Source of the DNA: Flavobacterium sp.
Lineage (GTDB): Bacteria; Bacteroidota; Bacteroidia; Flavobacteriales; Flavobacteriaceae
Direction: 5' to 3'
DNA: 64,000 nt
NCBI GenBank assembly: GCA_036399795.1
Contig: DASWML010000001.1
Coordinates: forward strand, 42,712-106,711
This document shows, in pieces, positions 5,094 through 25,355 of the stretch (the first letter of the stretch is position 1; every line of letters begins with the position of its first letter). The notes under the pieces are model-generated. The model was not told where the DNA came from and did no database searches. It was given only the letters and a program-made list of their open reading frames with translations. The position numbers and the translations under genes are program-made.

Positions 5094-7871
5094 TTATGAT
5101 AAGTTTTGCTGAGACGCAGCCAGAACCACGACAAATTCGGCGCCCGCGCCTTCCGTTCCGTTGGCGAAAATCAGCCCATGATGGTTTTCAGCAATTTTTT
5201 TGCACATTGCCAGTCCGATCCCGGTTCCTTCATACTCCGTTTTTCCGTGCAGGCGCTGAAAAATATTGAAGATTCGCGAGGCATATTCCTGTGGAAAACC
5301 GATACCATTGTCGGTGAATATAATTTTATAATAACCTCCGGATTTCTTTGCCAACTCCAGTTCAGAGGCTTCTTCTTCGGTGACAACCATGCTGCTGATG
5401 GTAATATGCGGTGGAACGTCCAGCCTGCTGTATTTTAATGAATTTGATATAAGATTGCTGAAGAGCTGTGTCATCTGCAGCGGAATTGTATCAATTACCG
5501 GCAATCCCGAATGCTCAATAACCGCTTGTTTCTCTTCCACAATAACATCAAAGTCGCTGATAATATCGTTGAATACATCTTCGAGGTTGGTGGCAACAAA
5601 AACCTCATTCTTGCGTGACAATTGCGAATAGCCGAGAATATCACGGATCAGGTTCATCATCCTGTTGACGGCATTGGTGATGCGCGCCATCTGAAACTTT
5701 GACTTGTCGTCGATTTCGCCCAGGGAGCTTTCCAGTATCTGTGTGAATAAACTGATCTTCCTTAGTGGTTCCTGTAAATCGTGTGAAGCGATATAAGCAA
5801 ACTGTTCCAGTTCGGCATTGGATTTCTGCAGGCGCTCGTTGGCATGCTCGAGTTCTTTTGTACGTTCCTTCACGACCTGTTCAATTTTCCGCCTTGCAAT
5901 CACCTGTGGCGTGACATCTACAGAAATGGCAAGCACACCTAAAATCTGACCTTCGCCATCGCGATATGCTTCATAAACAAAATTTTGGTAAAGGGTTTGT
6001 TTTTGCCCGAAGCGGATGAGTTCCACGGGGCGTTCGTTAGCGGTAAAAGTTTCGCCGGTAGTATAAACTTTCTGCAGAAGTTCTTCAAGTCCCTGTTCCC
6101 GTGCATCGGGCAAACCTACAAAAAGGGGCTTGTTCATCACATCAACATAAGATTTCCCCCATAAATTAATGATCAGGTCATTCGCTATTTCCACTGTATG
6201 CTCGGGACCGCGGAGCAGGCACATGGCTACCGGCGCCTGAAGTATGATGTTCCTGAAATTGCGTTCGCTTTCCTCAAGTGCTTTTTTGGCCACGACGAGA
6301 TCGGTGACATTTGCGGCAGTATTCATAACACCATAAACTTTACCCATTGCATCAAAAAGCGGGGTAAAACTATAATTGAAGTAAAACGACTGCAGCCTTC
6401 CGCCTACTAAAAGCTTAACATGCTGGTTATGCGCATGGAAAGCCACACCGGTGGTGTAAACGCGGTCGAGTTGCTCAATCGGTCCCTGGCCTTCCAATTC
6501 CGGCAGCACTTCGGCATATCGCTTTCCGATGACACTGCTGTCGCGGTCCCAAGTGTCAAGGATTGATTGGTTTGCCATTTCGATACGCATTTCACGCCCG
6601 ATATAAACACCGATCGGAAAAGGCGCGCTGTCGATGACGCTCCTGAGCCGTTGCGCACTTTGCTCAATTGCAAATTTCGAATGGATGCTCGCGCTGATGT
6701 CCTGGATGATGCACGACACGGTCACTGCTTCGCCATCTTCATCCTGAACCTGTCCGATGGAACGCAAATGTTGTAATTGCCGCGTTTGTGGGTGAGGCAC
6801 ACGGAAAATAATATCGTGTTTTCCTGATGAGCCTTCACGTGTCACACCTGTAAAAGTATCCCGAACTAGTGCGTAATCCTCCTGATAAACCTTTTTCAGA
6901 AGTTCTGGCAACGGTATATTGAGGCGTGTTACCCCGAACCATTCCATAATCTGGGGCGAATAGCTGACGGTATTGCTGCGCAGGTCGATGTTAAAAACTC
7001 CCATACCGCCGATTTCCTCTGCAAGTTCAAGGCTTCGCTCCTTTTGTACAAGCGCTTTGCGATCGTTGTGCAGTTGGGTAACCTCGTTTGCCATAGCGAC
7101 GACTCCGGTGACCGCTGCCTTTCCGTTTTCATAATAAGGCTGTAATACAAAATTAAAATATAATATTTCTTCTTTTCCGTGACGGATTAGGGTTACCGGA
7201 GCTTCATGAGCCTGGTAGGGCATACCTGTACGTCGAACCGTGTCGATGATCTCGATATATCTCTGGGATGCCAGCTCCGGAAGGACTTCCCTGAGCGGCT
7301 TACCTATAACGGAAGCATCCTTATCCCAAAGCCGGAGCGTCGGCTCATTGGCCAGCTCAATGATGAGATCCGGCCCTTTAAAGATATGAATTGCCATGGC
7401 AGACTGCCGGAAAAGATTATGGGCAGGTTCCAGCGACTTGATTTTTTCATCCTTGATATTGGCCTGCATGCGATCAGTAACGTTGACCGCAGTATGGATT
7501 ATAAATTCAATTTCGCGGTTTTCATTAAATATCGGAGTATGGATGACGGTCCAGTACATTTCGTTAAAAGTACCATCGGGCTGAACAATATCATAACGCT
7601 GCACTTCGAGTTCATTCTTCCGTTTTTCCCTGATGCAAATCGCCAGCGAAGCCCGTATATCATTGGATACATTCGGTGCGTCGGGATTGTCGGGAAAGTG
7701 TGTAAACAGACTTTTGCCAATAAGATCGTCCTTTGGCGCACCTGCGAAAGCGGCAAACTCATCGGTTGAGCCAACAACGGTAAAAACAGGGCTGTCAGGA
7801 AGGATCAATCCGCTGGCGCCTGGCATGGCATTAAAAACAGTCCGGTAATCTGTGGGTGAAGAATATTCCAA
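5094..7871 (-). CDS. cytoplasmic multi-PAS/PAC sensor histidine kinase (no receiver domain)
   Basis: Five to six PAS-like repeats are followed by a coiled coil, the HisKA H-box FAYIASHDLQEPLRKI, and HATPase_c (DNGIGF, GTGIGLAMCKKI). No TM segments were seen. The ORF-track start at 7871 is TTG; the first ATG is at 7826, so the start is uncertain. Confidence 0.85.
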   Translation of the reverse strand: MEYSSPTDYRTVFNAMPGASGLILPDSPVFTVVGSTDEFAAFAGAPKDDLIGKSLFTHFPDNPDAPNVSNDIRASLAICIREKRKNELEVQRYDIVQPDGTFNEMYWTVIHTPIFNENREIEFIIHTAVNVTDRMQANIKDEKIKSLEPAHNLFRQSAMAIHIFKGPDLIIELANEPTLRLWDKDASVIGKPLREVLPELASQRYIEIIDTVRRTGMPYQAHEAPVTLIRHGKEEILYFNFVLQPYYENGKAAVTGVVAMANEVTQLHNDRKALVQKERSLELAEEIGGMGVFNIDLRSNTVSYSPQIMEWFGVTRLNIPLPELLKKVYQEDYALVRDTFTGVTREGSSGKHDIIFRVPHPQTRQLQHLRSIGQVQDEDGEAVTVSCIIQDISASIHSKFAIEQSAQRLRSVIDSAPFPIGVYIGREMRIEMANQSILDTWDRDSSVIGKRYAEVLPELEGQGPIEQLDRVYTTGVAFHAHNQHVKLLVGGRLQSFYFNYSFTPLFDAMGKVYGVMNTAANVTDLVVAKKALEESERNFRNIILQAPVAMCLLRGPEHTVEIANDLIINLWGKSYVDVMNKPLFVGLPDAREQGLEELLQKVYTTGETFTANERPVELIRFGQKQTLYQNFVYEAYRDGEGQILGVLAISVDVTPQVIARRKIEQVVKERTKELEHANERLQKSNAELEQFAYIASHDLQEPLRKISLFTQILESSLGEIDDKSKFQMARITNAVNRMMNLIRDILGYSQLSRKNEVFVATNLEDVFNDIISDFDVIVEEKQAVIEHSGLPVIDTIPLQMTQLFSNLISNSLKYSRLDVPPHITISSMVVTEEEASELELAKKSGGYYKIIFTDNGIGFPQEYASRIFNIFQRLHGKTEYEGTGIGLAMCKKIAENHHGLIFANGTEGAGAEFVVVLAASQQNLS

Positions 7872-7982: not shown

Positions 7983-8789
7983 TCAGTACTTTCGTGAAGT
8001 CTTTATTTCAGCCGCTTCCTTCCATTCTTTTCCTGTCGCGGAAAGTAATTCAGAATAATTCCACGTATTGAAATCTGCCGCCTTGGTATCTTTAATTGCA
8101 ATGTATGTTTCTTCTTCAGGTATCACATCGGTGCAAAACCCGCATGTGCGTAGCATGGACAATATTGCCTGATGATTTGGTGCCCACCAGTTTGTGGGAT
8201 CGCCACCAAGGCGTTTTTCGATAAATGCCATTACCGGATAACCGGATTGAAGCATAATTTCGCGTTTGTGGAATTCAATATCATCGGGAATCTCCATTTC
8301 TGCTTTGTCCGGCATGGAAAGCGTCTGGAAGACCATCATGTTCTTTACTTTCTCGGAAATGATATCCAATGCCAACATCGGATAACGCAGATGATAAAAA
8401 ACGCCCATAAACCAGACGATGTCGAATTTCTCATCGAGTTTTGCCAGGTCATATACCTGCATCTGCTTGAAAGTTATCCGGTCGTCAAAGCCAAATTGCC
8501 CCGCTACCCATTTCGCCTGCTTAAGATAATGCACATCAAGATCTATGGCGAGCACTTCGGCACCACGTTTAGCCAGTTCAATAGAATAAAAGCCAGCATT
8601 GCAGCCGATATCCAACGCTTTCCATCCGGTGAGGTCTTCCGGGATCCGCTCTTTTATTTTCTCCCATTTGAACGACGGAAAATCTCCCAGGAAATGTTCT
8701 GGTGCGGTTTGCGTTCCATCGGGTAGATGGATATTGTGAAACCACGGCTGCAAAGCCTCTATTTCTTTTTTTACTGACATGCTGATCAT
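7983..8789 (-). CDS. class I SAM-dependent methyltransferase, CmoB/DUF1698-like (resembles what I recall as the TIGR04290-type family)
   Basis: SAM motif I is LDIGCNAGFYSIELAKRGA. N-terminal WFHNIHLPDGTQTAPEH and FMGVFYHLRYP signatures are present. The start was trimmed to the ATG at 8789, one nt after the stop of the upstream GT. It is the last gene of the nine-gene operon. Confidence 0.8.
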   Translation of the reverse strand: MISMSVKKEIEALQPWFHNIHLPDGTQTAPEHFLGDFPSFKWEKIKERIPEDLTGWKALDIGCNAGFYSIELAKRGAEVLAIDLDVHYLKQAKWVAGQFGFDDRITFKQMQVYDLAKLDEKFDIVWFMGVFYHLRYPMLALDIISEKVKNMMVFQTLSMPDKAEMEIPDDIEFHKREIMLQSGYPVMAFIEKRLGGDPTNWWAPNHQAILSMLRTCGFCTDVIPEEETYIAIKDTKAADFNTWNYSELLSATGKEWKEAAEIKTSRKY

Positions 8790-8790
8790 T

Positions 8791-9861
8791 TTAAACCGAC
8801 TGCATAACCTGCAGGATGTATTCTTCAAGTTCTTTAGCGCGCGCTTTTGCTGTATGAGTGTGAAGGACTTTTGCGCGGGCGCTTTCACCAATTTTTTTTC
8901 TTTCTTCTTCAGATGTTTCCTTCATAAAGCGCACAACATCATGCGATGAGCGTGCAATCAGGATTTCTTCTCCTTCAGTAAAGAGCGACGTAAGTCCGTC
9001 CCAATAATCAGAAATCACAGGCACGCCGCACGCCGCAGCCTCAAACAGGCGGACGCTTGGGGAATAACCGGCTTCGATCATATCTGCGCGGGTAACATTC
9101 AGCGTATAACATTGCGAATTGTAAAACCTGCGGTGTTTTGATGGTGGCAGGTGTTCGATCCGCTCAACATTAACAGGCCAATTAATTTCTGCAGGATATT
9201 GCGGACCTGCAACAACAAATTTCCGGCTGATGAATTCTTCTGCGGTTTTGCAAAGCAATTCATTAACAGTAGGTTGCCGGTCGGTACTAAAAGTGCCGAG
9301 ATAACCCAGATCCCATTTTCTTACGCTATCGTTTTCCGGATAATATAATTCCGGGTCAACAGAACAATACAGTGCTTTTGCGGCTGGCGATCCATAGCAT
9401 TCCTCGATGTGCTTCAGGATCGGTCCGCCGGAAAATGACAGGTAAAGATCGTATTTGCCGATAAGTTCAGGCGTGATATATTCGTAGTCGTTCCGTCTTA
9501 GTTTTGCCAATGTAACCGGTGTGTCGATATCATAAAATGCTTTGATTCCTTTTGCGGTATCAATAACCCAGTTTCCGACTTCAACGCCCTGTTGAACATA
9601 CGATCCAACAATCACACAATCGGCCTGACTAACATCCGAAGCATAATCTTCCATGAGTTCCTCATTGCTTTTGTAGAGTCCGAGCCGACAGAAATCCGGC
9701 TGCGGCATATCACGGTTTGCCGCATAATAAGGCACATCTTTTTCAAGGAACAATATTTCATGGCCAAGATTCGCCATTTCCTTAAGCAAAGCCCGGTAAG
9801 TTGTGGCGTGGCCATTTCCCCAGGAGGAAGTGACTGATAACCCGATACAGACAATTTTCAT
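8791..9861 (-). CDS. GT-B glycosyltransferase, CgeB-like (paralogue 3 of 3)
   Basis: It shares the N-terminal motif SSWGNGHATTYRALLKEMANLGHEILFLE and the C-terminal motif FEAAACGVPVISDYWDGL with the two upstream genes. No TM segment or signal peptide is present. Confidence 0.8.
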   Translation of the reverse strand: MKIVCIGLSVTSSWGNGHATTYRALLKEMANLGHEILFLEKDVPYYAANRDMPQPDFCRLGLYKSNEELMEDYASDVSQADCVIVGSYVQQGVEVGNWVIDTAKGIKAFYDIDTPVTLAKLRRNDYEYITPELIGKYDLYLSFSGGPILKHIEECYGSPAAKALYCSVDPELYYPENDSVRKWDLGYLGTFSTDRQPTVNELLCKTAEEFISRKFVVAGPQYPAEINWPVNVERIEHLPPSKHRRFYNSQCYTLNVTRADMIEAGYSPSVRLFEAAACGVPVISDYWDGLTSLFTEGEEILIARSSHDVVRFMKETSEEERKKIGESARAKVLHTHTAKARAKELEEYILQVMQSV

Positions 9862-9873
9862 ATGATGTTGTTT

Positions 9874-10980
9874 TTAATCCTGAACCTGTTGGACTTTTGA
9901 AAGCGATTTCTGAAAAACAGATTGCAACAATCCTGCGCGATGGTCGTAAGTATGCGCTGCCAACACTTTCTTATAGGCTGCGCGACCGATTTTCCATGCT
10001 TTTTCGATGGTAAGGCCTTCAAGAATTTTTATTACCTCTTCCCCATCGCGTGCTACAATAATCTCTTTGCCCGGCTCAAAAAAGTGATCAATTCCTTCCC
10101 AATAATCAGTGATGATACAGGCTCCGGCTCCGGCGGCTTCAAAAACCCTTGTTGCCGGTGAAAAGCCATATTTGGCCATGCTGTCGCGGCTGATGTTGAG
10201 TACGGCGCGTGGTGTCGCGTTAAGTGCATTATGGTCTTTCGTATAAACATGCCCGATGTATTCAACGTTATCGCTCATCGGCTTGTCGGCCCATCCGCTT
10301 CCGCCCAGTATAAATTTGTATTGTGGGAGTGCCGCTGCGGGTTTCAGAAAAAACTCTTCGACACGTTGTTCACGATCAGGAAGTCGGTTTCCGAGAAATG
10401 CGAGGACACAATCAAAGGAAGACTGGGGTTTCTCCGGAAAATGCGTATCGGTATCAAGGGCATTGTAAACCGGGATACATTTTTTTGCGCCTTTCTTTTC
10501 ATAAGCATCTATCACCGGTTGTCCGCCGCCATAAGTCAGGATGAAGTCGTATAACGGGATCAGCTTGTTGAACTGGTCCTCAGGATGCTGATCAATACGA
10601 TCCAAGGTTGCCGGCGCATCGACATCCCAGAAAATAATAAGATTATCTTCGCGTTTCAGCATGGTAACTTCCCTTTCCAGCAATTCATCAAACGCTCCGA
10701 CACCGCTGGCCTTAATGATGACATCGGCAGACGAGGCCTCGAGAAGATGGTGTCTTACAATTTCAGGATCATCCTCATAGACCACAACGCGGCACCATTC
10801 AGGATTGTCTATGTCGCGGTGTTTCTGGCGCTCATAAATATCCGGTTCATAAAAGGTGACTTCATGGCTCATTTTGTTCAACGCTTTTACAATTCCCCTG
10901 TAATAAGTAGCCGCGCCATTCCAGTATGCCGAAACGATACTGGATCCGAAGAAAGCTATTTTAAGCTGCTGATCTTTCAT
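9874..10980 (-). CDS. GT-B glycosyltransferase, CgeB-like (paralogue 2 of 3)
   Basis: It carries SAYWNGAATYYRGIVKALNKMSHEVTFYE and FEAAGAGACIITDYWEGI. Its ATG overlaps the upstream stop codon (ATGA). Confidence 0.8.
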   Translation of the reverse strand: MKDQQLKIAFFGSSIVSAYWNGAATYYRGIVKALNKMSHEVTFYEPDIYERQKHRDIDNPEWCRVVVYEDDPEIVRHHLLEASSADVIIKASGVGAFDELLEREVTMLKREDNLIIFWDVDAPATLDRIDQHPEDQFNKLIPLYDFILTYGGGQPVIDAYEKKGAKKCIPVYNALDTDTHFPEKPQSSFDCVLAFLGNRLPDREQRVEEFFLKPAAALPQYKFILGGSGWADKPMSDNVEYIGHVYTKDHNALNATPRAVLNISRDSMAKYGFSPATRVFEAAGAGACIITDYWEGIDHFFEPGKEIIVARDGEEVIKILEGLTIEKAWKIGRAAYKKVLAAHTYDHRAGLLQSVFQKSLSKVQQVQD

Positions 10981-12104
10981 ATTTGTATGGTTTTATTCTT
11001 TAATGAGTTGACATTGTCTTTTATACCAAGTGCGGCAGCAACATTCTCCAGTTCGTCAACACGGTGCGCACAGGTATGCCTTGCCAGAATAGTTTTCCGG
11101 CCGTGTGCTGCTAATTTATTTGCTGCTTCAGTATCTGAAAGAAGATACTTTATGCTTTCAGTCATTTCACGACCATTCTTTACGGATAAATAATCTTTCC
11201 CTGTAGTAAAAAGGTTTTCGGTGTCGGCCCACGGCGCAGAAATAAGCGGAATTCCACATGCCATCGCCTCGAAAGGACGGATTGTCGGAATTCCAGGAAG
11301 CATCTTTACATATGGGCCGCGTGGTACATGAATGGTGAGTTTATATTCAGAAAAAACTTCAGGAACTTTATAATTTGGAAGCCATCCGCCATATTCAATG
11401 CCAGCGTTTTTCAATGCTTTAAGCGCTTCATCAGGATAACGTACGCCATAGACTTTTGCTTTCAGTCCAAGCTCCTTTACAGGTTTTATCAGGAATTCGT
11501 TAAGTTCGTCCTTTCGCTCATTATCACCCCAATTGCCAATCCATACCAAGTCACCTTTCTTTTCGCCATTTATCGGGTGGAAAAGATCGGCATCTGCAGC
11601 TTCGTGCCAGGTCCAGACTTTAGAGATCCATTTTTTTTGCTGATAGATCTTCTGGATTATATCGCCAAAAACAAGCGCTCCGTCATAGTTTGAAAAATCA
11701 TATTTTGCAATTCCGGCTTCATCCGACACCGCGCGATGATGCGTATCGTGGAATATCAGCTTAAAACTGTACTTGATCTTGATCCTGCCGATTTGCGACA
11801 CCAGCGCGTGATCGTTCCATTCGTGCACAAGGACAAGGTCGGCACCAATGAAAACATCTTCTTCTATAGGTTTGGTCGGATTATAAGAAACAGATTTTAA
11901 CCCGGGGTAATATTTCTCAAATTCCTTAAGAGGCTGTTTGCCATGATCCTTAACCAGATTCTCTAGGCTCCAGCTATTTTGAGGTTCAAAAACCGTTACA
12001 TCATGACCGCGTGACAGCAGTTCTTTTACCGTACCGCGAAGAAAATGTGCGTTGCCATGATTCCAGTCGGACAACAGTGAGTGATAAAATAAAAGTATTT
12101 TCAT
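10977..12104 (-). CDS. GT-B glycosyltransferase, CgeB-like (paralogue 1 of 3)
   Basis: It carries SDWNHGNAHFLRGTVKELLSRGHDVTVFE and FEAMACGIPLISAPWADT. There is an ATGA overlap with the upstream GT4 gene. Confidence 0.8.
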   Translation of the reverse strand: MKILLFYHSLLSDWNHGNAHFLRGTVKELLSRGHDVTVFEPQNSWSLENLVKDHGKQPLKEFEKYYPGLKSVSYNPTKPIEEDVFIGADLVLVHEWNDHALVSQIGRIKIKYSFKLIFHDTHHRAVSDEAGIAKYDFSNYDGALVFGDIIQKIYQQKKWISKVWTWHEAADADLFHPINGEKKGDLVWIGNWGDNERKDELNEFLIKPVKELGLKAKVYGVRYPDEALKALKNAGIEYGGWLPNYKVPEVFSEYKLTIHVPRGPYVKMLPGIPTIRPFEAMACGIPLISAPWADTENLFTTGKDYLSVKNGREMTESIKYLLSDTEAANKLAAHGRKTILARHTCAHRVDELENVAAALGIKDNVNSLKNKTIQI

Positions 12105-13192
12105 AAAGTTTGGGATATAGCTTTATATTTTGCGGCCTTTTTGTAGAGCGACATGTATTGGTTTGCCATCAGTTTTGTATCATACCGTACAGCACGCTCT
12201 TTTGCTTTTAGAGAAAGCCGTTGTCGCAGGTTTTTATCTGAAACCAGTCTTGAAAGTGCCTGTAATGCCTCGTCTTCCTTGTGCGGATCGAAGTACACGG
12301 CTGAGTCGTTCCATATTTCCAATAAAGTATCAATTCCCGACAGCGCCAGCGCACAGCCTGCTTTTGCGGCTTCCAGTACCGACAGACCAAAAGGCTCATA
12401 CTTCGCCGGATTGATGTAAATTGATGCTTTTGCCATCCATTGACGGATTTCATCCGGATTGAGTGTACCAAGAAGCACAATATTTTGATAAGTTTCAGTT
12501 GCATCTCCGTTATCTCCGGCTATAAAAAGCGGCCATGGAAGCCTGCCTGCAATTCGCGAGAGCATGTGTATATTTTTGGCTTCGTCCCAAATCCTGCCTG
12601 CGCAAAAGATAAAAGGTTCCTTGGGAATACCGCTGGGAATATTAATGTTCCGGGCGTTGTTGATAATTGAAGTGTTTTCAATCTTTCCGTAAAAGCACTC
12701 AGCCTGCAGTTTTATTGCTTCTGTCGGAAATACAACTGCATCCGAATTGGCCAGCGCCGAAGCGACCAATGCGCCATAACGTTCCCAGGCAGCGGGCGCA
12801 TTTTCGTTTTTAACTGCTTGCCACCATGTAAGCACGCAGGAATGGAAAACAGTGATTACGGGACAATCCCAATCGTAATTGACCTGTCCGTAGTTATTAA
12901 AGTGCATCATATCGGGCTTTATATCTTCATAAATTGAAACCAGCCAATCCTGTGCGAGATCCACATCTTCCCAGGGTTCATGCATCCATTCAAGTTTGAA
13001 TGTACTTTGATGCAAGGTTACATTCGGAAGCTGTTCCGCCTGTTTCCGCTGATGGCTGTCTGGATATTTCCCCATCACAGCCAAATGCACTTCAACATCA
13101 TAGGGAAGCAACGCCCTGCAGAGGTCGATGCAGTACGTCCATACGCCGCCAATACTGTCGGCGGTCATTAAAATCTTAAGACTGCCTTCCAT
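12101..13192 (-). CDS. glycosyltransferase family 4 (GT-B, retaining type)
   Basis: The N-terminus is ILMTADSIGGVWTY. The E-x7-E region is YEPFGLSVLEAAKAGCAL. The ORF overlaps the upstream gene by 17 nt. An alternative ATG at 13168 would remove the overlap. Confidence 0.8.
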   Translation of the reverse strand: MEGSLKILMTADSIGGVWTYCIDLCRALLPYDVEVHLAVMGKYPDSHQRKQAEQLPNVTLHQSTFKLEWMHEPWEDVDLAQDWLVSIYEDIKPDMMHFNNYGQVNYDWDCPVITVFHSCVLTWWQAVKNENAPAAWERYGALVASALANSDAVVFPTEAIKLQAECFYGKIENTSIINNARNINIPSGIPKEPFIFCAGRIWDEAKNIHMLSRIAGRLPWPLFIAGDNGDATETYQNIVLLGTLNPDEIRQWMAKASIYINPAKYEPFGLSVLEAAKAGCALALSGIDTLLEIWNDSAVYFDPHKEDEALQALSRLVSDKNLRQRLSLKAKERAVRYDTKLMANQYMSLYKKAAKYKAISQTL

Positions 13193-14198
13193 ATATACGG
13201 TCGATTATACGTGCTGTTTTTATAAATTCGGATGCCGATTGCGCGTCGTAACCCTGGCCTGCGAGCAAAGCTTCTGCCCATACAATACCGGCGCGGCCAC
13301 TCCAGTTGTCTTCACCTGAAAAAAGAATTTCCGTTTGCGTCCCCGTGTATTTTTCGGCAGTGAAATCATAAAAAGAGCCGTTGATGTTTTTGAACGCGAC
13401 GCCGCCGCCTGTTCCGTAAAAACGTGCTTCAATCACGGCGTCTTTCCCTGCAGAAATATTCCAGGAGCATTGCAGGTTTATCGTCACATCGTTTTCGGTA
13501 GTCATCATCACCGACGCGAAATCTTCAGCGGTTTCTTCCGGATTTTCAATTATTTTTCCCTGATGGTATAGTCGGCTTCGTACCTGCGCGATTTCTGGAA
13601 AGCCAAGACACCATAATGCAGTATCGACCAAGTGGATACCAAGATCCATAACACAACCGCCACCGGATTGCTTTACATCATAAAACCAGGATTTGTCGGG
13701 ACCATAAGCATTATGGAAGATCAGTTCGGCGGCGTATATTTTGCCGATTTCGCCTGAAGAGACCATTTCATGTACTGCGCGCATCGCTTTTGTATGCCGG
13801 TACGAAAGGTCGACAGCCAGAAACTTTCCGGCTTTTGCCGACGCTTCGGTGATGGCTTTTACTTCTGCTGCTGTCCGCCCGAGTGGCTTTTGGCAAAAAA
13901 CGTGTTTTCCGGCATCAAGCGCTTTTAATGATTGTTCCGCATGTAACGCACTTGGTGTTGCGATGACAATGCCATCAATATCTTCGTTGGCAACAGCTTC
14001 TTCAGGTGAGTTTGCAACAGTTGCTTCGGGAACGGATAAAAGGGCCTGCGCCGCATTTTCGGCTGAAGGTTCAGAAATCACTGCTGCGGTTGCCAAACCG
14101 GAATTTATGAGGACTTCCATGCGGTTCCTGCCGATCCATCCAACACCGATAAATCCTAACGATAGTACTTTTTTTTCTTCTGCTGTTACTGTGCTCAT
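13176..14198 (-). CDS. Gfo/Idh/MocA family NAD(P)-dependent oxidoreductase
   Basis: The N-terminal Rossmann motif is LGFIGVGWIGRNRM. CQKPL and typical C-terminal alpha/beta domain features are present. There is an ATGA overlap with the upstream gene. Confidence 0.8.
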   Translation of the reverse strand: MSTVTAEEKKVLSLGFIGVGWIGRNRMEVLINSGLATAAVISEPSAENAAQALLSVPEATVANSPEEAVANEDIDGIVIATPSALHAEQSLKALDAGKHVFCQKPLGRTAAEVKAITEASAKAGKFLAVDLSYRHTKAMRAVHEMVSSGEIGKIYAAELIFHNAYGPDKSWFYDVKQSGGGCVMDLGIHLVDTALWCLGFPEIAQVRSRLYHQGKIIENPEETAEDFASVMMTTENDVTINLQCSWNISAGKDAVIEARFYGTGGGVAFKNINGSFYDFTAEKYTGTQTEILFSGEDNWSGRAGIVWAEALLAGQGYDAQSASEFIKTARIIDRIYGRQS

Positions 14199-15211
14199 GA
14201 ATTGATAATTAACGCTTTTATGAATCCGTCGGGGCGGTTTTTTAGATAATCGAATGCCTGCTGCGCCTCATCCAGCGAAAAAGTATGGGTGAAGAATGGG
14301 AACGGATCCATCTTTCCCGCTTCAATCGCCGCGACCGCATCGCAGATTCCCTTTATATATTGCTGCGGATCACGCTCATGTGCGCTGATCAGGTCGATAC
14401 CGCGCCAGTTCAGCATTTGCATGTTTACATTCCGCATTCCGTCCTGATGGAAACCGGCCACGATGAGCCTGCCACGTTCTTTTGTGAGTTCGATGGAAAG
14501 ATTCAATGGCCATTCTTTACCGGTAGCTTCAATTACTTTATCGCAAAAGTTGCCGTTGGTAAGTTGCCTGACTTTTTCAATTATTTTATAATGGTCCTCC
14601 ATCGGAACCAGATGATCGGCCCCGGCATCGTTTGCCGCTTCGAGTGAGGCGTTTCTTTGTGAGATGGCAATTACTTCTGCACCCGCCGACTTTACCAATT
14701 GTATCAGTAAAAGGCCGAGGAAACCGGCACCTACAATGGCTACGGTGTCACCTGCTTTAATTTCGCTTCGGTTAAAAATGTTCATCGCACAACCCAAAGG
14801 TTCACCGGGGAAAGGCTGACTTTGCAGAAATTCGGGTAGCTTTACGGCGTGATCAGCTTTTGTAATGTCATATTCTGCATAAGCGTTGTATGAAAGACAT
14901 GAAACTCTGTCTCCTATCTGAAATCCGGAAACCGAATTGCCAATCTTATCGACAATTCCCCAGCCTTCATGTCCCGGATTTCCCGGCGCAACGGGATAAG
15001 AAAACCATTCCCTGCCTTCCCAAACCGGAATGTTTGAAGCGCAAACACCTGAACCTTCAATACGGATGCGGATCTCACCTTCAGACGGCTCCGGAATCGG
15101 CAGATCTTTTATTTCAATAGTTCCGGGTGCTGCAATCACAGCGGCTTTCATGGTTTTTACGTCTTTTAAAATGGAAGCTTTGAGCGTCCCCGAAATTGTA
15201 GCGCCGTTCAT
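14195..15211 (-). CDS. zinc-type medium-chain alcohol/polyol dehydrogenase
   Basis: GSGVCASN and GHEGWG form the catalytic Zn region. GAGFLGLLLIQL is the nucleotide-binding motif. There is an ATGA overlap with the upstream fusion gene. An internal ATG at 15151 (MKAAVIA...) is an alternative start. Confidence 0.8.
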   Translation of the reverse strand: MNGATISGTLKASILKDVKTMKAAVIAAPGTIEIKDLPIPEPSEGEIRIRIEGSGVCASNIPVWEGREWFSYPVAPGNPGHEGWGIVDKIGNSVSGFQIGDRVSCLSYNAYAEYDITKADHAVKLPEFLQSQPFPGEPLGCAMNIFNRSEIKAGDTVAIVGAGFLGLLLIQLVKSAGAEVIAISQRNASLEAANDAGADHLVPMEDHYKIIEKVRQLTNGNFCDKVIEATGKEWPLNLSIELTKERGRLIVAGFHQDGMRNVNMQMLNWRGIDLISAHERDPQQYIKGICDAVAAIEAGKMDPFPFFTHTFSLDEAQQAFDYLKNRPDGFIKALIINS

Positions 15212-17235
15212 ATTGCCACGGCTTTAGGGGTTTTGTCTTTCTCGGGCAATTCGATTCCGCGGGATTCACAGAGCCATTGCATCAGCGCTTCAATCCCTGT
15301 GTCGACCGAATATTTTTGTTTCCAACCGGTCGCTTTTCTGAATTTCGAGGTGTCGGAAACATAATATTGCTGATCGCCGGTGCGCCATCCTTCGAATGAA
15401 ATATCCATTTTCCGGTCGGTTTTTTCCTTGATGATATCGAGGATCTCAATCAGGCTGATGGTATTTTTCGGGCCTCCGCCGATATTGAATACATTTCCGG
15501 AAACTTTATCCATATTGGTTGAAGCAAGGATGAATGCGTCAACCAGGTCTTCAACAAACAGAATATCGCGAACCTGCTTTCCGCTGCCATATATCACAAC
15601 AGGTTTGCCTTCGAGCGCACGGATGAGGAAATGTGCTACCCAACCCTGGTCTTCAGTCCCGAACTGATGCGGCCCGTAGATGCAGCTCATCCGGAAAACC
15701 GCGGTTTTGAGTCCGTATGAACGAGCGTAATCCAGAATATATTGGTCGGCTGCGCCTTTGGAACATCCGTACGGACTGTGGAAATCCAGCGGGCGGGATT
15801 CATTTATCCCATTATTCCTGAAGTATTCATTCTCAGGATAATAACGTGTATCACTTGCTTTCAGGCTTAAATCTTCAAGATCGCCATAAACCTTATTGGT
15901 CGATGTGAAGATAAGCTGTGGTTTGTGCCTGGTTTTTCGAATGGCTTCGAGCAGATTGAAAGTACCTTCCATATTTACCCTGAAATCGTGATCAGGATTT
16001 GTAAGGGATGAAGTCACGGCAACCTGTGCAGAAAAATGGAAGATCTGCACGGCATTTTTGACGCATTCCTCAAGCACTCTTTTTTCGCGGATGTCGGCAA
16101 TCTGGATGATCAGGTTTTTTCCGAATTCACTCTTGAGCCACTGTAGGTTTTGTTCAACCCCGGCGCGGGAAAGGTTGTCATAGATCATGACTTTCTTGCC
16201 TTGTCCGAGCAATCGTGCCGCAAGGTTGGTTCCGATAAATCCGGCGCCACCGGTAATTAAAGTATATTTTTCCTCATTTTCGTCAAACGTGTATCGTTTT
16301 GAAATGTAATCATGTTTGCGGATGTTCTTGATTCCTTCCCGCTCGAGAAGATTGTAGAGCAGTTTCGGGGTTCCATCGTGCTTCTTTAGTCCGAAATAAT
16401 AATCACGTTCGTCGAGATGGAATCCGCCGACGGTCGGGATGGCCGGATCAAGATCGTTCATGCTGTACCAATAAACCCTGTCGGCGTTGGCGCTGATGAC
16501 TTTTTTGAATTCTTCATACTGCTTGACTTCGTCATTCTGCCATGTCGAAAATCCGGCTTCAGAAATCCATATTTCCTTTTTCAGATTGTTCCTGTCGAGC
16601 ACATCGCGGACTTTCTCAAGGTTCTCTTCCCAACTTGTCCATTGCTGGTCATAAACATCAGGAAAACCATGAATACCGATGGCATCTATATATTCGAGGA
16701 CACCTTTATCGTGCATGGTCTGCAACCAGTTCGGGTCAATCGGGCTCATTCCGCCAAGCAATGTCTTTTTCCCCTTCACCCTGGCCCAATTTGCTGCCAT
16801 TCCGACCATTGACGCAAATTTGGTCCATGAATAATCGAGCGTATAATCATATTCAATGATATTGTTTGGCTCGTTCCACAATTCGACCCATTCAAAGTGG
16901 TCTCCATAACGTGTGATGATGACATCGATGAAATCGGCATAGGCTTTCGGGTCTTTCGGCGGCGCGGAGATTTTGTCCGCTTCGGCAATGGAAGGCGGCG
17001 TATAAAGAAAACATGGAAGGATTTCGAAATGTTTGCTCAGTTCAGGGAACAGCCAGTCGTACCATTCTTCAGTGTTTCTCTGATGCCAGTCGGCCCACGA
17101 AATTCCGGTGCGGACATGACGGAAACCTGCCTTTTTAATATCTTCAATTGCCTGTTTAACCTGCTCATAATGACCGGGCCTGAACCATTCCAATATTCCT
17201 ACTACAGGTTCATCTGCTTTGTGTATCGTTTTCAT
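15208..17235 (-). CDS. fusion protein: N-terminal clan GH-A (TIM-barrel) glycoside hydrolase plus C-terminal extended-SDR NDP-sugar epimerase (CDP-tyvelose/paratose 2-epimerase-like)
   Basis: Residues 1 to about 305 carry ELWNEPN (candidate acid/base E122) and IWISEAGF (candidate nucleophile E226). The spacing of about 104 residues is typical of clan GH-A. Residues from about 325 to 675 carry TGGAGFIGTNL (Rossmann) and YGCSKGAADQY (YxxxK). It is a single uninterrupted 675-codon ORF. Confidence 0.8.
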   Translation of the reverse strand: MKTIHKADEPVVGILEWFRPGHYEQVKQAIEDIKKAGFRHVRTGISWADWHQRNTEEWYDWLFPELSKHFEILPCFLYTPPSIAEADKISAPPKDPKAYADFIDVIITRYGDHFEWVELWNEPNNIIEYDYTLDYSWTKFASMVGMAANWARVKGKKTLLGGMSPIDPNWLQTMHDKGVLEYIDAIGIHGFPDVYDQQWTSWEENLEKVRDVLDRNNLKKEIWISEAGFSTWQNDEVKQYEEFKKVISANADRVYWYSMNDLDPAIPTVGGFHLDERDYYFGLKKHDGTPKLLYNLLEREGIKNIRKHDYISKRYTFDENEEKYTLITGGAGFIGTNLAARLLGQGKKVMIYDNLSRAGVEQNLQWLKSEFGKNLIIQIADIREKRVLEECVKNAVQIFHFSAQVAVTSSLTNPDHDFRVNMEGTFNLLEAIRKTRHKPQLIFTSTNKVYGDLEDLSLKASDTRYYPENEYFRNNGINESRPLDFHSPYGCSKGAADQYILDYARSYGLKTAVFRMSCIYGPHQFGTEDQGWVAHFLIRALEGKPVVIYGSGKQVRDILFVEDLVDAFILASTNMDKVSGNVFNIGGGPKNTISLIEILDIIKEKTDRKMDISFEGWRTGDQQYYVSDTSKFRKATGWKQKYSVDTGIEALMQWLCESRGIELPEKDKTPKAVAI

Positions 17236-17245
17236 GTTTCCGAAT

Positions 17246-18355
17246 TTAGACCGTTAAACCTCTCAATGCCAGCTCCTGGTTTGCCTGACTCACGCTGTCA
17301 ACAGCAATCTGGCCTTCAAGCCATCCGGCAAGTTCCCTGAGTCCGTCCTCGAATTTGATCCGAGGTTCAAAACCCAGCACTTCCCTTGCTTTTGTGAGAT
17401 CGGCGAAGCAATGACGGATGTCGCCTACGCGGTACTTTCCGCTGACTTCAGGAGCAATGTCTTTTTGCATTACATTGGCAAGTTTGTCGGCAATTTCACT
17501 AACAGTATATTGGTTTCCGCTTCCGATGTTGAAGACTTCCCCATTAGCCTTTTGAGATTCAAGTGCAAGGCGGCAGGCGCGGGCAACATCTTTTACATGA
17601 ACAAAATCGCGTTTCTGGTTTCCATCCTCAAACAGGATCGGCGGGTTATTGTTGAGCAGCCTGGAGGCAAATATCGCCAGAACGCCGGTGTATGGATTGG
17701 ATAGTGCTTGGCGTGTTCCGTAAACATTGAAGAATCGCAATGCAGTGGTTGGAATGTTATAGGCTGAGCCGGTGATAAGACAAAGGCGCTCCTGATCATA
17801 TTTCGAAAGTGCATAGACAGAAGACAGATTGGGCTTTTTCTCTTCGGGCGTGGGCTGTGGCGTCAGCATCCGGCCTTCATCAGCAAGTTCCCACTGATGG
17901 TTTTTCAAATCAGCAAGATTCCGGCTGCATTCCTGTATTTTTCTGCCGGTTCCATCGGTATAAAGTCCCTCACCATAAATACTCATGCTCGATGCCACAA
18001 CAAGTTTCTTCACGGGATTTTCAATAAGTGCTTCCAGCAGCACAGCCGTACCAAGATTGTTCACATCGGTATAATCGCAGATCTGGTACATGCTCTGGCC
18101 TACGCCGACCATAGCCGCAAAATGGAAAACGGCATCAATTCCCTCAAGTGAGCGCTTGACCGCATTTTTGTCCCGGATGTCCCCGATGATGAGTTCGGCT
18201 TCTGGATTAAGGTATTCCGGGCGAGAAGCATCGGGACCGTGTACCTGTTCGGAAAGGTTGTCAAGGATCCTGACGTTGTAGCCGCTCCGTAGCAATTCGT
18301 CGGCAAGGTGAGAACCGATAAAACCGGCTCCGCCTGTAATTAGGATGTTTTTCAT
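17246..18355 (-). CDS. NAD-dependent NDP-sugar epimerase/dehydratase (extended SDR)
   Basis: MKNILITGGAGFIGSHL and YALSKYDQERL (YxxxK) are present. The start was trimmed from 18427 to the ATG at 18355, which places the Rossmann motif at the N-terminus. It is the first gene of the nine-gene operon. Confidence 0.85.
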   Translation of the reverse strand: MKNILITGGAGFIGSHLADELLRSGYNVRILDNLSEQVHGPDASRPEYLNPEAELIIGDIRDKNAVKRSLEGIDAVFHFAAMVGVGQSMYQICDYTDVNNLGTAVLLEALIENPVKKLVVASSMSIYGEGLYTDGTGRKIQECSRNLADLKNHQWELADEGRMLTPQPTPEEKKPNLSSVYALSKYDQERLCLITGSAYNIPTTALRFFNVYGTRQALSNPYTGVLAIFASRLLNNNPPILFEDGNQKRDFVHVKDVARACRLALESQKANGEVFNIGSGNQYTVSEIADKLANVMQKDIAPEVSGKYRVGDIRHCFADLTKAREVLGFEPRIKFEDGLRELAGWLEGQIAVDSVSQANQELALRGLTV

Positions 18356-18491
18356 AGTTATTGGTTTGTTTAAGCCGAATATTCTGTCATCCCGGAGAGC
18401 TTGGTGCAAAAAAAATGGTACAGACATCTGTAGAAGCAGATTCTGTAAACGCCTTTTTTTGCTGGAGCAGGAACAACAAAATGTTCTATTA

Positions 18492-18499: not shown

Positions 18500-18720
18500 A
18501 AAACAAGAAAAAACCCACATGTTATACGATTTCATGAGTATAATTATAATATTTCCACTACAAATTTTTTTTGTATAACTGTGATGATTTATTGTTATTC
18601 AATTGACATAGAGTTGGTTAAATTTAAAAGCGCTTTCTACTTGAGAAACGAGGTTTAATTACAGGCAATTAAAGTTTCCTTTATATATTTACCCCCTGAA
18701 TTGTATGAAAAGCATAATTG

Positions 18721-21564: not shown

Positions 21565-21705
21565 TCCTTGCTGTTGCTGGCATCCTGCAAAATGTTATAA
21601 CAATTTTAAAAAATTATATAAGTGTTTCAGCTTCAAAGATGATGAACTTTGAAAATGAGCTCCAGATGTTTCTGTGGCTTCCGCCAAATCACCATACAAA
21701 ATAAT

Positions 21706-22239
21706 ATGCAGCTAAACATCACCACTCCGGGTTCGGTTGAAGAAGTAAAAAAGCTCCGTACGCTCTTCGAAGATTATCTGAAAATGGTTTACTGGACCGA
21801 AAAAGCATTGATTCCTGTGATTTCCTTCATCATTAAATCAGTGAACTCAAAGGATTTTGCCAGGATACTGACGCTCCATCTTGCAAAAACACATATTCAT
21901 CGTGACAGGATCGAGAAAATCTTCGAAAGCATCGGCATCAGGGCTGAAGATAAAAAATTCGACCCTATTTCAAGCCTGATCCATGAAATTGAAGTTACGG
22001 TTACCCAAACAGATTCAGGTGTTGTACGTGATGCTGCGATCATTGCGCTTGTGCAACATATCATCCATAGCGAAATCGCTTCATACGGCACGTTGAAATC
22101 TTTTGCCATTACACTCAGGGAAGAAGATGTTGTTGAACTGCTCGAGAAGAATCTTGTGGATGAGAAAGAACTCGACTACAGCCTCTCGGTACTTGCCGAA
22201 GCATACATCAACGACGAAGCTGCCAATAAGGAGGTATAA
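21706..22239 (+). CDS. ferritin-like DUF892 (YciE/YciF-type) stress protein
   Basis: MQLNITTPGSVEEVKKLRTLFEDYLKMVYWTEKAL... and a four-helix-bundle-like composition resemble the YciE/YciF family. The start was trimmed to the ATG at 21706. Confidence 0.7.
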   Translation: MQLNITTPGSVEEVKKLRTLFEDYLKMVYWTEKALIPVISFIIKSVNSKDFARILTLHLAKTHIHRDRIEKIFESIGIRAEDKKFDPISSLIHEIEVTVTQTDSGVVRDAAIIALVQHIIHSEIASYGTLKSFAITLREEDVVELLEKNLVDEKELDYSLSVLAEAYINDEAANKEV

Positions 22240-22255
22240 TTTAAATATAGTTTGT

Positions 22256-25334: not shown

Positions 25335-25355
25335 AATCTTGGGGATTTTATCCCG

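Follow-up and report, generated by a model that had tools for sequence, protein, structure and literature searches.

A coupled operon of soluble sugar enzymes

The window, by which we mean the whole 64-kb stretch of DNA analysed here, carries a minus-strand operon of nine tightly coupled ORFs that runs from 18355 to 7983. ORF analysis and a check of each junction confirmed this layout, which an earlier note on the sequence had proposed. From g1 to g9 the junctions are a 10-nt gap, two ATGA overlaps, a 17-nt overlap, two more ATGA overlaps, a 12-nt gap and a 1-nt gap, the last of which widens to 10 nt if g9 starts at the ATG at 8780. A TTG start at 8891 for the g9 ORF was discarded as an ORF-calling artefact. 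The domain assignments made in the earlier note all hold in Pfam, NCBIfam and PDB searches and in a structure model.

The operon opens with two enzymes of nucleotide-sugar type. The product of g1 (17246–18355, with a longer ORF extending to 18427) is an extended SDR resembling GalE and UDP-GlcA 4-epimerases, with the YxxxK motif present. It carries an insertion of ~40 aa (residues ~131–171), and its match to Pfam Epimerase (E = 2e-54) is split in two stretches. Its PDB matches include the UDP-glucose 4-epimerase 4zrm (E = 6e-49) and MoeE5 (E = 3e-40), and identity across related loci is 62–79%. Gene g2 (15208–17235) encodes a GH-A barrel fused to a second SDR. This C-terminal domain (15208–16275) belongs to the CDP-tyvelose 2-epimerase family and aligns over its full length with TaTyvE (9rl0, E = 1.8e-94) and 1orr (E = 1.3e-87), making it a probable nucleotide-sugar C2-epimerase. 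TaTyvE itself interconverts CDP-Glc and CDP-Man (PMC13098431, PMC7851689).

A redox pair follows. Gene g3 (14195–15211) encodes a Zn-dependent medium-chain dehydrogenase (Pfam ADH_zinc_N and ADH_N) of the polyol, ketose reductase or scyllo-inosose dehydrogenase type; ketose reductase and sorbitol dehydrogenase are its PDB matches, and its NCBIfam scores for tdh (E = 2e-31) and the scyllo-inosose 3-dehydrogenase IolM (E = 2e-29) are both below cutoff. Pfam places the product of g4 (13176–14198) among the Gfo/Idh/MocA sugar or cyclitol oxidoreductases. It resembles the inositol 2-dehydrogenase IolG (E = 1e-34, also below the NCBIfam cutoff) and, in the PDB, the glycoside 3-oxidase DgpA (E = 3e-25) and 1,5-anhydro-D-fructose reductase.

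None of the nine proteins has a TM segment, no 19-residue window exceeding a Kyte-Doolittle value of 2.0, and inspection of the N-termini revealed nothing like a signal peptide. The highest-scoring window is the Rossmann GxGxxG of the Zn-ADH. The claim that the whole set is soluble therefore stands, and the glycosyltransferases in particular lack TM anchors.

A cytosolic hydrolase domain

The N-terminal 320 aa of g2 (16276–17235) have no Pfam match and no PDB sequence match. An AF2 model of this domain (pLDDT 93.6) folds as a (beta/alpha)8 barrel like those of clan GH-A glycoside hydrolases, in agreement with the assignment made from the letters, and in a Foldseek search of the PDB PslG (GH39) comes first (E = 1.7e-17, TMq 0.73–0.75). 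In the model, N121-E122-P123 follow strand 4 and E226 lies where strand 7 ends. Across 32 homologues the two glutamates hardly vary, E122 being the putative acid/base and E226 the putative nucleophile. Its fusion to an SDR and the lack of signal peptides in standalone homologues point to a cytosolic domain. The earlier note had suggested that this built-in hydrolase generates primers or serves turnover. The barrel and its glutamate pair agree with a hydrolase, but a Legionella copy of the operon is missing the domain, so primer generation is not a universal step.

Four glycosyltransferases and a methyltransferase

Gene g5 (12101–13192) encodes a GT4 retaining glycosyltransferase with an EX7E motif (YEPFGLSVLE), matched by Pfam Glycos_transf_1 and Glyco_transf_4 and, weakly in PDB sequence searches, by PimA, SPS, GlgM and ManT. 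It is the least conserved of the set (38–54% identity in related loci, against 51–78% for the CgeB-like proteins) and is a candidate for the initiating, acceptor-specific transferase.

The next three genes, g6 (10977–12104), g7 (9874–10980) and g8 (8791–9861), encode CgeB-like GT-B paralogues that match PF13524 with E values of 3.5e-37, 1.7e-39 and 2.9e-37, respectively. They are only 25–31% identical to one another (25% for g6 and g7, 31% for g8 and g7), whereas identity to positional orthologues in other phyla is 50–64%, with g6 at 50–60% in Rhizobiaceae and metagenome contigs and g7 the best conserved of the three. This difference argues for three distinct roles, and the genes are three ancient 1:1 orthologue sets.

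The AF2 model of g7 (pLDDT 91.6) has two Rossmann domains. Foldseek ranks ManT (7qsg, E = 1.2e-14) first, then BshA, MshA and SPS, with BH4 glucosyltransferase and GlgM also among the matches; all six are soluble enzymes with soluble acceptors. These leaders are barely separated (E from 1e-14 to 1e-12), and such small gaps count against a cytosolic reading. So does the presence of PimA, PimB', PglA and WbnH among the fold or sequence neighbours, since three of these, the GT4 enzymes PimA, PglA and WbnH, have no TM helices and yet use lipid-linked acceptors.

The last gene, g9 (7983–8789), encodes a CmoB-related (PF08003) SAM-dependent methyltransferase. The earlier note had linked this protein to TIGR04290, and indeed it scores 325 bits against that model (cutoff 300), compared with 62–67 bits for the CmoB models (cutoffs 209 and 275). 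With more than 7,700 homologues and 58–75% identity across Bacteroidota and Legionella, it serves as a marker for the gene set. In some genomes a g8-type CgeB is fused to the methyltransferase; representatives span 506–682 aa with the methyltransferase domain C-terminal, and one related locus (L082) has a 626-aa gene of this kind. Given such fusions, the product of the transferase is probably what the methyltransferase modifies.

A probably mobile cassette without linked export genes

Of the 80 Bacteroidota and Legionella loci that we fetched, 51 have the ten domains in the same order on one strand, which is more than chance. The same cassette is found in metagenome contigs and on 133 plasmids, mostly alphaproteobacterial, including pSymB of S. 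meliloti 1021 and p42b of R. etli CFN42. Legionella proteins are 46–73% identical to the Bacteroidota proteins studied here (eight of nine at 61% or more), suggesting transfer of a unit that is independent of host-specific export machinery; we consider horizontal transfer of the cassette probable. In some lineages the redox pair is exchanged for a TIGR04295 B12-radical-SAM enzyme, which scores 589–728 bits in sister cassettes.

Export genes were sought at several scales. Within the window, nearly every ORF of 180 aa or more was scanned against Pfam, and the scan turned up no component of Wzx/Wzy, ABC, OPX or PCP type, nor any priming transferase or acyltransferase. In the 10 kb downstream, any given multi-TM family is seen in at most 5 of the 80 loci, and the upstream flank is visible in only ~10 loci. 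Copies in other phyla have no membrane or export genes beside them, and across ~90 loci from several phyla there is no linked priming phosphoglycosyltransferase, flippase, polymerase, ABC transporter, OPX or PCP. The earlier note's observation that the locus lacks exporter and lipid-carrier genes thus extends to the window and to related loci, and the comparison of neighbourhoods that it had called for shows a gene set kept across phyla without recurrent export genes.

Accessory genes vary by lineage and comprise UDP-xylose synthase, histidine phosphatase, inositol-3-phosphate synthase, pyruvyl transferase and NUDIX genes. A UXS-family gene lies within or adjoins the cassette, UDP-glucose dehydrogenase accompanies the Legionella copy, and NUDIX is the accessory in Hymenobacteraceae. 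Taken together, the phosphatase, the inositol-3-phosphate synthase, UXS, UDP-glucose dehydrogenase and NUDIX would suit a pathway with UDP-pentose donors and with soluble intermediates that are phosphorylated or cyclitols.

A proposed methylated glycan or glycoside kept in the cell

With moderate confidence, we propose that these nine genes form the core of a mobile, self-contained and fully cytosolic glycan-assembly cassette whose product is a methylated oligosaccharide or glycoside kept in the cell. The conserved lack of membrane and export genes, the soluble enzymes with soluble acceptors that the CgeB-like fold matches, and the cytosolic hydrolase all move us towards this reading. The earlier note had already proposed a cytoplasmic methylated glycan or glycoside; the soluble gene set, the absence of export genes, the ManT fold and the transferase-methyltransferase fusions speak for it, while product and location are what we infer from them.

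The acceptor, sugars and step order might be as follows. The two SDR epimerases would tailor nucleotide-sugar donors, g1 at C4 and the C-terminal domain of g2 at C2 (for example, NDP-Glc to NDP-Man). The divergent GT4 would start the chain by glycosylating a soluble acceptor, perhaps a cyclitol or a small phosphorylated molecule, and the non-redundant g6–g8 would each add one defined residue or linkage. Gfo and Zn-ADH could oxidise a single hydroxyl on a sugar or cyclitol and then re-reduce it, leading to epimerisation or a keto intermediate, a position that the B12-radical-SAM enzyme would fill in other lineages. The g9 enzyme would O-methylate the product, and the PslG-like domain may trim or recycle it. 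Such a small, defined, intracellular oligosaccharide or glycoside could plausibly be a stress protectant or a storage or regulatory glycan.

Within this proposal, we think it quite unlikely that the acceptor is a cyclitol: an MshA-like step would glycosylate a myo-inositol phosphate, which would be dephosphorylated, epimerised in its ring by an IolG-/IolM-like pair and O-methylated. The resulting methyl-inositol glycoside, akin to plant galactosyl cyclitols, could act as a compatible solute or protect against desiccation. Speaking for this are the NCBIfam models that g4 and g3 most resemble, IolG and IolM, and the place of MshA among the top fold matches. In S. medicae and S. meliloti an operon of inositol-3-phosphate synthase, histidine phosphatase and a homologue of the hydrolase sits beside the cassette, and the phosphatase also accompanies it in Rufibacter/Sabulibacter and one metagenome contig. 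However, all IolG and IolM scores fall far under the family cutoffs, g4 is just as near to glycoside 3-oxidases, the redox pair is replaceable, and the inositol-3-phosphate synthase is linked to the cassette only in Sinorhizobium and is absent from the window.

The same phosphatase and synthase indicate small-molecule acceptors, which weighs against a role in glycosylating a cytoplasmic protein or a proteinaceous or polymeric structure with chains capped by the methyl group. Three core transferases do belong to PF13524 and are named 'CgeB family protein' by the sources, every enzyme is soluble, Bacillus CgeB is thought to glycosylate the spore crust from the mother-cell cytoplasm, and several host groups are described as tolerating desiccation or forming cysts or spores. 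Yet there is no conserved candidate acceptor protein in or beside the cassette, and we know of no biochemical definition of CgeB's role. We regard this reading as very improbable.

We judge it somewhat unlikely that the cassette makes a glycolipid, or that it alters a glycoconjugate of the envelope (LPS core or O-chain, capsule side chain, membrane lipid head group), with peripheral, TM-less GT-Bs working on the inner face of the membrane and unlinked general machinery for flipping or export. The neighbours with lipid-linked acceptors favour it, and UXS and UGD are typical suppliers of surface glycans. Pyruvyl transferase, an accessory typical of surface polysaccharides, and FrhB-like genes occur in Sinorhizobium and Rufibacter. 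The rhizobial cassettes reside on megaplasmids rich in surface-polysaccharide loci, and in R. etli CIAT 652 a Wzc-like kinase lies at a distance of ~10 kb. The pyruvyl transferase and this rhizobial setting, like the hydrolase-free Legionella copy, also count against a cytosolic product. On the other side, none of the ~90 loci links a priming or export gene, a unit moving between phyla would be expected to bring its own exporter, and the hydrolase is joined to a nucleotide-sugar enzyme in the cytosol, unlike PslG. An intracellular methylated glycan or glycoside is still the reading we prefer, and the cassette offers a testable unknown in model rhizobia.

Comparison with known systems

The neighbourhood has been noticed before, as NCBI has modelled two of its proteins, and NCBIfam curators reportedly described a twelve-gene neighbourhood in rhizobia. 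TIGR04290 (meth_Rta_06860) and TIGR04295 (B12_rSAM_oligo) are 'hypothetical equivalog' models by which PGAP names proteins in rhizobial, Legionella and Flavobacteriia genomes; they are naming models only, without product, substrate or pathway. A literature search that included both accessions and the neighbourhood label found no paper on the cassette or its product.

Individual parts have precedents. The C-terminal domain of g2 aligns over its full length with the CDP-tyvelose 2-epimerases of Salmonella (RfbE/TyvE) and Thermodesulfatator (TaTyvE; E values of 1e-87 to 2e-94), but the cassette lacks the other genes of a 3,6-dideoxyhexose pathway, and the domain is joined to a hydrolase domain. 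CgeB of Bacillus subtilis spore-crust glycosylation is likewise a soluble GT-B enzyme of PF13524. The cassette differs in having three ancient paralogues in fixed order with a GT4 and a methyltransferase, in Gram-negative, non-sporulating hosts without the cge/sps partner genes. PslG, from the psl operon of Pseudomonas aeruginosa, has the fold nearest to the N-terminal domain of g2, with the same catalytic glutamate pair on strands 4 and 7, and is also a glycan hydrolase encoded within the biosynthetic operon for its own substrate. It is a periplasmic enzyme, acting outside the cytoplasm in a Wzx/Wzy-type EPS pathway, whereas the g2 domain is predicted to be cytosolic, is joined to an epimerase, shares 18% identity and has no Pfam GH39 match.

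The mycobacterial MMP pathway (ManT, MeT1, MeT3, MmpH; PMC9883506) resembles the cassette in overall design: it too is all-cytoplasmic and exporter-free, and it pairs a soluble transferase of GT-B/GT4 type with SAM methyltransferase(s) and a glycan hydrolase of its own. Its ManT is the first structural match of the CgeB-like model and a weak sequence match of g5, although identity is only ~14%. The earlier note's analogy with MMP and MGLP holds for the all-soluble make-up, and for MMP in the ManT fold as well, but the cassette's parts are not homologous to theirs. MmpH folds as an (alpha/alpha)6 barrel (PMC9883506), whereas the cassette's hydrolase, which is not universal, is a GH-A barrel of (beta/alpha)8 type joined to an SDR, and the cassette's methyltransferase is related to CmoB. 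Four transferases set the cassette apart, and MMP has no counterpart to its two nucleotide-sugar epimerases or its redox pair. The cassette occurs in Bacteroidota, Pseudomonadota and metagenome lineages, whereas MMP belongs to Actinobacteria.

An operon of nine tightly coupled genes encoding predicted soluble proteins

Nine open reading frames occupy 18355 to 7983 on the minus strand of the window, as the earlier note had described, and they are as closely coupled as it had claimed, with successive junctions of a 10-nt gap, ATGA, ATGA, a 17-nt overlap, ATGA, ATGA, a 12-nt gap and a 1-nt gap. The last junction becomes 10 nt if the ATG at 8780 is taken as the start of the final gene, g9 (7983-8789). 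A 302-residue, TTG-started version of g9 was rejected as an artefact of ORF listing; the match to the NCBIfam family TIGR04290 opens just after the ATG at 8789.

Profile searches against Pfam and NCBIfam upheld the domain assignments for all nine genes. In order, they encode an extended SDR (g1, 17246-18355; SDR1), 320 residues without a family match followed by a second SDR (g2, 15208-17235; SDR2), a Zn-ADH (g3), a Gfo/Idh/MocA enzyme (g4), a GT4 glycosyltransferase (g5), three PF13524 "CgeB-like" proteins (g6-g8) and a TIGR04290 methyltransferase that scores above the curated NCBIfam cutoff (g9). Consistent with the claim that the whole set is soluble, none of the nine proteins has a 19-residue window with a Kyte-Doolittle hydropathy above 2.0, the single peak near that value being the Rossmann GxGxxG strand of the Zn-ADH, and none has a signal-peptide-like N-terminus. 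Scanning the window for sigma-70 promoters and terminators returned matches at chance level, the sigma-70 model being uninformative for a Bacteroidota genome. We also considered an anti-phage defence system and rejected it, as eight of the nine proteins match no PADLOC model and g9 gives a generic methyltransferase-domain match only.

The operon belongs to a widespread, probably mobile cassette

Public data hold more than 7,700 homologues of the g9 methyltransferase, which fall into few clusters at 50% identity (160 at E ≤1e-30). Scanning a collection with a single genome for each species confirmed at least 439 places encoding a g9 relative, and 80 loci were kept for comparison with the window. 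The full ten-domain order of the window is present on one strand in 51 of these; of the remainder, most lie on short contigs or are of the Rufibacter type, in which inserted unrelated genes precede the methyltransferase. The co-linear arrangement of SDR1, SDR2, GT4, three CgeB-like genes and the methyltransferase, which defines the TIGR04290-marked cassette, is that of the window operon. As the earlier note had proposed, neighbourhoods were compared across phyla, and the cassette core proved to be kept also in Legionella, Rhizobiaceae and metagenome contigs. Identity to the window proteins is 45-80% across loci and 46-73% in Legionella wadsworthii, unusually high values between phyla that suggest horizontal transfer of the whole unit. 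Source names on the homologues extend to Acidobacteriota, Cyanobacteria, Myxococcota, Planctomycetota, Verrucomicrobiota and Armatimonadota. The cassette methyltransferase is also found in 133 plasmid records, among them those of Sinorhizobium (including S. meliloti 1021 pSymB), Rhizobium etli (CFN42 p42b and CIAT 652 pC), Azospirillum, Roseomonas, Paracoccus and Xanthomonas. Upstream of the rhizobial cassettes, the EcfG-type general stress-response promoter motif gave chance-level matches, with none in the promoter region. Our search of the literature found no paper on the cassette. We conclude that the window operon is an ordinary member of a widespread and substantial uncharacterised cassette.

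A methyltransferase fused to a glycosyltransferase in a related locus

The suggestion in the earlier note that g9 is of the TIGR04290 type was correct: it scores 325.4 bits against this family, for which the cutoff is 300. It is related to CmoB but stays far short of the CmoB equivalog cutoffs (67 and 62 bits against 209 and 275), and its alignment with CmoB begins at CmoB residue 108. In a related locus, a single 626-residue protein combines a CgeB-like glycosyltransferase with a TIGR04290 methyltransferase (L082:16712-18592), and five representative homologues of 506-682 residues (P0362, P0400, P0419, P0424 and P0458) have a C-terminal methyltransferase domain. In view of the sub-cutoff CmoB scores and the glycosyltransferase fusions, we rejected a role for g9 in tRNA modification. 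We considered whether g9 might perform carboxymethyl (Cx-SAM) transfer rather than methyl transfer; the equivalent of CmoB Y200 is conserved, but a histidine occupies the position that we take to be K91, both being Cx-SAM-binding residues of CmoB.

A PslG-like barrel precedes the second epimerase

Residues 1-320 of g2 match no Pfam family at E <0.01 and no PDB sequence at E <0.1, so that by sequence the domain belongs to no defined GH family in Pfam. Its AlphaFold2 model, built from a 32-sequence alignment, is a confident (beta/alpha)8 barrel (pLDDT 93.6). Among PDB structures, Foldseek ranked PslG first (E 1.7e-17, TMq 0.73-0.75), ahead of other clan GH-A enzymes; PslG is the GH39 hydrolase encoded in the Psl operon of Pseudomonas. 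N121-E122-P123 lies after strand 4 and E226 at the end of strand 7, and both glutamates are nearly invariant among homologues of the domain. The barrel, the putative acid/base in the NEP motif after strand 4 and the putative nucleophile ending strand 7 place the domain with the PslG-like enzymes of clan GH-A/GH39. Because its true standalone homologues have hydrophilic N-termini, the modelled domain is taken to be cytosolic, and it is probably an active retaining glycosidase.

Alignment further indicates that a second type of hydrolase, annotated by PGAP as "beta-xylosidase", is a circular permutation of this domain: query residues 119-299 correspond to subject residues 7-192, and 10-111 to 195-294. 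It occurs in S. medicae (L090:4376-5353), in metagenome contig L084 (21014-21550) and in three Rufibacter/Sabulibacter loci as well as L088 (L050, L053 and L054 being the former), and is 65-74% identical among Sinorhizobium, the L084 contig and Rufibacter/Sabulibacter. No hydrolase was found within 20 kb of the Legionella copy of the cassette.

Epimerases, redox pair and glycosyltransferases

The C-terminal domain of g2 is a full-length, high-scoring match to characterised CDP-tyvelose 2-epimerases (9rl0, E 1.8e-94; 1orr, E 1.3e-87; residues 6-335 of 355 covered), and it belongs to that family. One TyvE enzyme interconverts CDP-glucose and CDP-mannose (PMC13098431); the TyvE papers we searched do not treat gene context. 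By sequence comparison, g1 resembles UDP-hexose and UDP-uronate 4-epimerases, with an insertion, g4 resembles glycoside/sugar 3-oxidoreductases and inositol dehydrogenases, and g3 resembles polyol, ketose and inosose dehydrogenases.

Among themselves, the three CgeB-like proteins share just 25-31% identity, against 50-64% between each of them and its positional orthologues in distant phyla. Judged by these identities, g6-g8 are an ancient, fixed triplet with predicted non-redundant roles. The GT4 protein g5 is the least conserved member of the cassette (38-54% identity), as expected if it were an acceptor-specific initiator. The model of g7 is a two-Rossmann GT-B enzyme (pLDDT 91.6), and its top PDB fold match is ManT (7qsg), the mannosyltransferase that acts in making the mycobacterial methylmannose polysaccharide, at 14% identity; the sequence of g5 also matches 7qsg (E 9e-4), over the C-domain. 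Next for g7 come BshA, MshA, tetrahydrobiopterin glucosyltransferase, sucrose-phosphate synthase and GlgM, which like ManT are all soluble and act on soluble acceptors. By analogy with what has been proposed for CgeB itself, the cassette might glycosylate a cytoplasmic protein or structure, a reading that we regard as very unlikely. The lipid-acceptor enzymes PglA and PimB' are also among the fold matches of g7, and the E-values lie close together.

No linked export machinery found with the cassette

The earlier note had claimed that the operon lacks an exporter, and this holds throughout the 64-kb window: Wzx/Wzy, ABC, synthase, OPX, PCP and priming transferase genes are all absent. All that the window has in this respect is an isolated GT2, 12 kb from the operon, and an RND efflux pump at a distance of 30 kb. 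The operon thus has none of the linked components by which a surface polysaccharide locus is recognised, namely a priming phosphoglycosyltransferase, a flippase/polymerase, ABC or synthase system, and OPX/PCP proteins. Across the 80 loci, of which about 10 show the upstream flank and most only the downstream 10 kb, no multi-TM family recurs within 10 kb downstream in more than five. Copies in other phyla have no exporter genes beside them, except that a single Rhizobium strain carries a Wzc-like gene at a distance of about 10 kb. The product could be a glycoconjugate, lipid-linked or of the envelope, whose export depends on machinery encoded elsewhere, a reading to which the PglA and PimB' folds are relevant; given the lack of linked export, we consider it unlikely. 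If envelope decoration is the function, the cassette would be an export-independent module for tailoring surface glycans.

A variable shell surrounds the conserved core

The Zn-ADH and Gfo genes (the redox pair) are replaced by a Zn-ADH and a classical SDR in locus L083. At the same position, L081, L082, L084 and L085 carry a TIGR04295 B12-binding radical-SAM protein (for example L084:12023-13312), scoring 589-728 bits in L081 and L084, the two tested. This suggests that NAD-dependent and radical tailoring chemistry are interchangeable in the cassette. The rhizobial cassette includes a gene of the UDP-glucuronate decarboxylase family; in Legionella, and in many Flavobacteriaceae, such a gene comes immediately behind the methyltransferase. 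The L. wadsworthii copy (L042:1324-13357) has a standalone SDR2 without the hydrolase domain, then a UXS-like SDR and a UDP-glucose dehydrogenase, and Hymenobacteraceae cassettes include a NudE/NudK-like NUDIX hydrolase.

In Sinorhizobium, the permuted hydrolase gene forms an operon beside the redox pair with genes for inositol-3-phosphate synthase and a histidine phosphatase; a polysaccharide pyruvyl transferase and an FrhB-like partner come after this operon. Rufibacter and Sabulibacter share the histidine phosphatase, pyruvyl transferase, FrhB-like protein and permuted hydrolase with Sinorhizobium, and contig L084 has the histidine phosphatase and permuted hydrolase with a sugar-phosphate nucleotidyltransferase. 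The Sinorhizobium synthase, together with the IolG/IolM-like character of the redox pair, raises the possibility that the product is a methyl-inositol glycoside, a special case of a cytosolic glycan pathway. However, the IolG/IolM scores are below threshold and the linkage of the synthase is restricted to one lineage, and we think this special case quite unlikely.

In the Rufibacter/Sabulibacter loci (L047-L058; for example L049:3713-9757), about 5-7 kb of unrelated genes separate the third CgeB-like gene from the methyltransferase. Several products of this insert have signal-peptide-like N-termini: a 3-keto-disaccharide hydrolase, a GDPD protein and two that, by eye, may resemble a carboxylesterase and a polysaccharide deacetylase.

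Neighbouring genes

Two large multi-PAS histidine kinase genes flank the window operon, one cytosolic and on the operon strand 111 nt downstream (5094-7871, minus strand), the other divergent and CHASE-containing (18718-21564, plus strand). Neither is conserved beside other copies of the cassette, and we therefore do not count them as parts of it. The L083 copy adjoins unrelated PAS kinases and a CheB/CheR fusion.

Stress-type genes (DUF892 (YciF-like), YghA/PRK06128-type SDR and Mn-catalase) lie near the cassette in several lineages: in the window (21649-23110 and 46448-47347) and at L037:12514-14056, L082:19007-19897, L078:11573-12349 and L083:5752-6621. In L083, the YghA/PRK06128-type SDR is one of the genes within the cassette, and it shares 44% identity with the window copy. 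In S. medicae, the neighbours include BON, DUF4142 and "nutrient deprivation-induced" genes. The association of stress-type genes with the cassette is suggestive.

Elsewhere in the window, a cyanophycin-synthetase-like gene (32-2389, plus strand) encodes a Cyanophycin_syn N-domain, ATP-grasp and Mur-ligase domains; the Pfam alignment enters the 115-residue N-domain profile at position 71, which may mean that the window edge truncates the ORF. On the minus strand, an endonuclease I family protein (23382-25358) and a DUF5122 beta-propeller protein (59816-61174) carry T9SS C-terminal sorting domains, as befits a host from Bacteroidota, which these domains indicate.

A candidate cytosolic pathway and its relation to known systems

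We propose, at roughly even chances, that the cassette is a self-contained cytosolic pathway of donor tailoring, GT4 initiation, CgeB-like extension, tailoring, O-methylation and trimming. C4-type and C2-type epimerases would tailor nucleotide-sugar donors, and the GT4 enzyme would start on a soluble acceptor, possibly phosphorylated or a cyclitol. The three CgeB-like enzymes would each contribute defined residues, a redox or radical-SAM step would tailor one position, the methyltransferase would O-methylate the product, and the PslG-like domain would trim or recycle it.

A more specific version is tentative, and we hold it to be possible rather than probable. Here the product would be an intracellular O-methylated oligosaccharide or cyclitol glycoside serving stress or desiccation tolerance, made by three ancient CgeB-type transferases, an interchangeable NAD/B12-radical-SAM step and a recycling hydrolase. 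It would be the first cytoplasmic system resembling the polymethylated polysaccharides (PMPS) or galactosyl cyclitols outside Actinobacteria, spread by horizontal transfer over Bacteroidota, Alpha-, Beta- and Gammaproteobacteria and the other phyla that source names suggest. If an intracellular methylated glycan or glycoside is indeed made, many soil, marine and host-associated bacteria would share a class of molecules thought peculiar to mycobacteria (PMPS) or plants (methylated/galactosyl cyclitols). In that case a defined biochemical role would be available for the first time for PF13524, the CgeB family, and TIGR04290 and TIGR04295 would be assigned a function. These ideas are directly testable, since the cassette is present in models amenable to genetics: S. 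meliloti 1021 (pSymB, at about 243-258 kb) and R. etli CFN42 (p42b, RHE_RS22255-RHE_RS22300).

The suggestion in the earlier note of a cytoplasmic methylated glycan or glycoside is partly supported: the genes, domains, solubility and lack of linked export agree with it, but the cassette is not a member of the mycobacterial MMP/MGLP systems. Like the MMP pathway, it combines a soluble GT4-type transferase, a methyltransferase and a dedicated hydrolase with no exporter, whereas MmpH is an (alpha/alpha)6 barrel (PMC9883506). The cassette has no orthologue of the ManT or Rv3032-type transferases, its likeness to them being at the level of fold, and neither an MmpH-type (alpha/alpha)6 endomannosidase nor a GH57 branching enzyme, its hydrolase being a (beta/alpha)8 GH-A barrel; its epimerase and redox modules have no counterpart in MMP. 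Because the hydrolase fold differs, the transferases are fold-level relatives only and the epimerase and redox modules are unmatched, we separate the cassette from MMP. It falls within the neighbourhood for which NCBIfam already has the "hypothetical equivalogs" TIGR04290 and TIGR04295; a twelve-gene neighbourhood in rhizobia, as the curators may have described it, would fit the R. etli layout.
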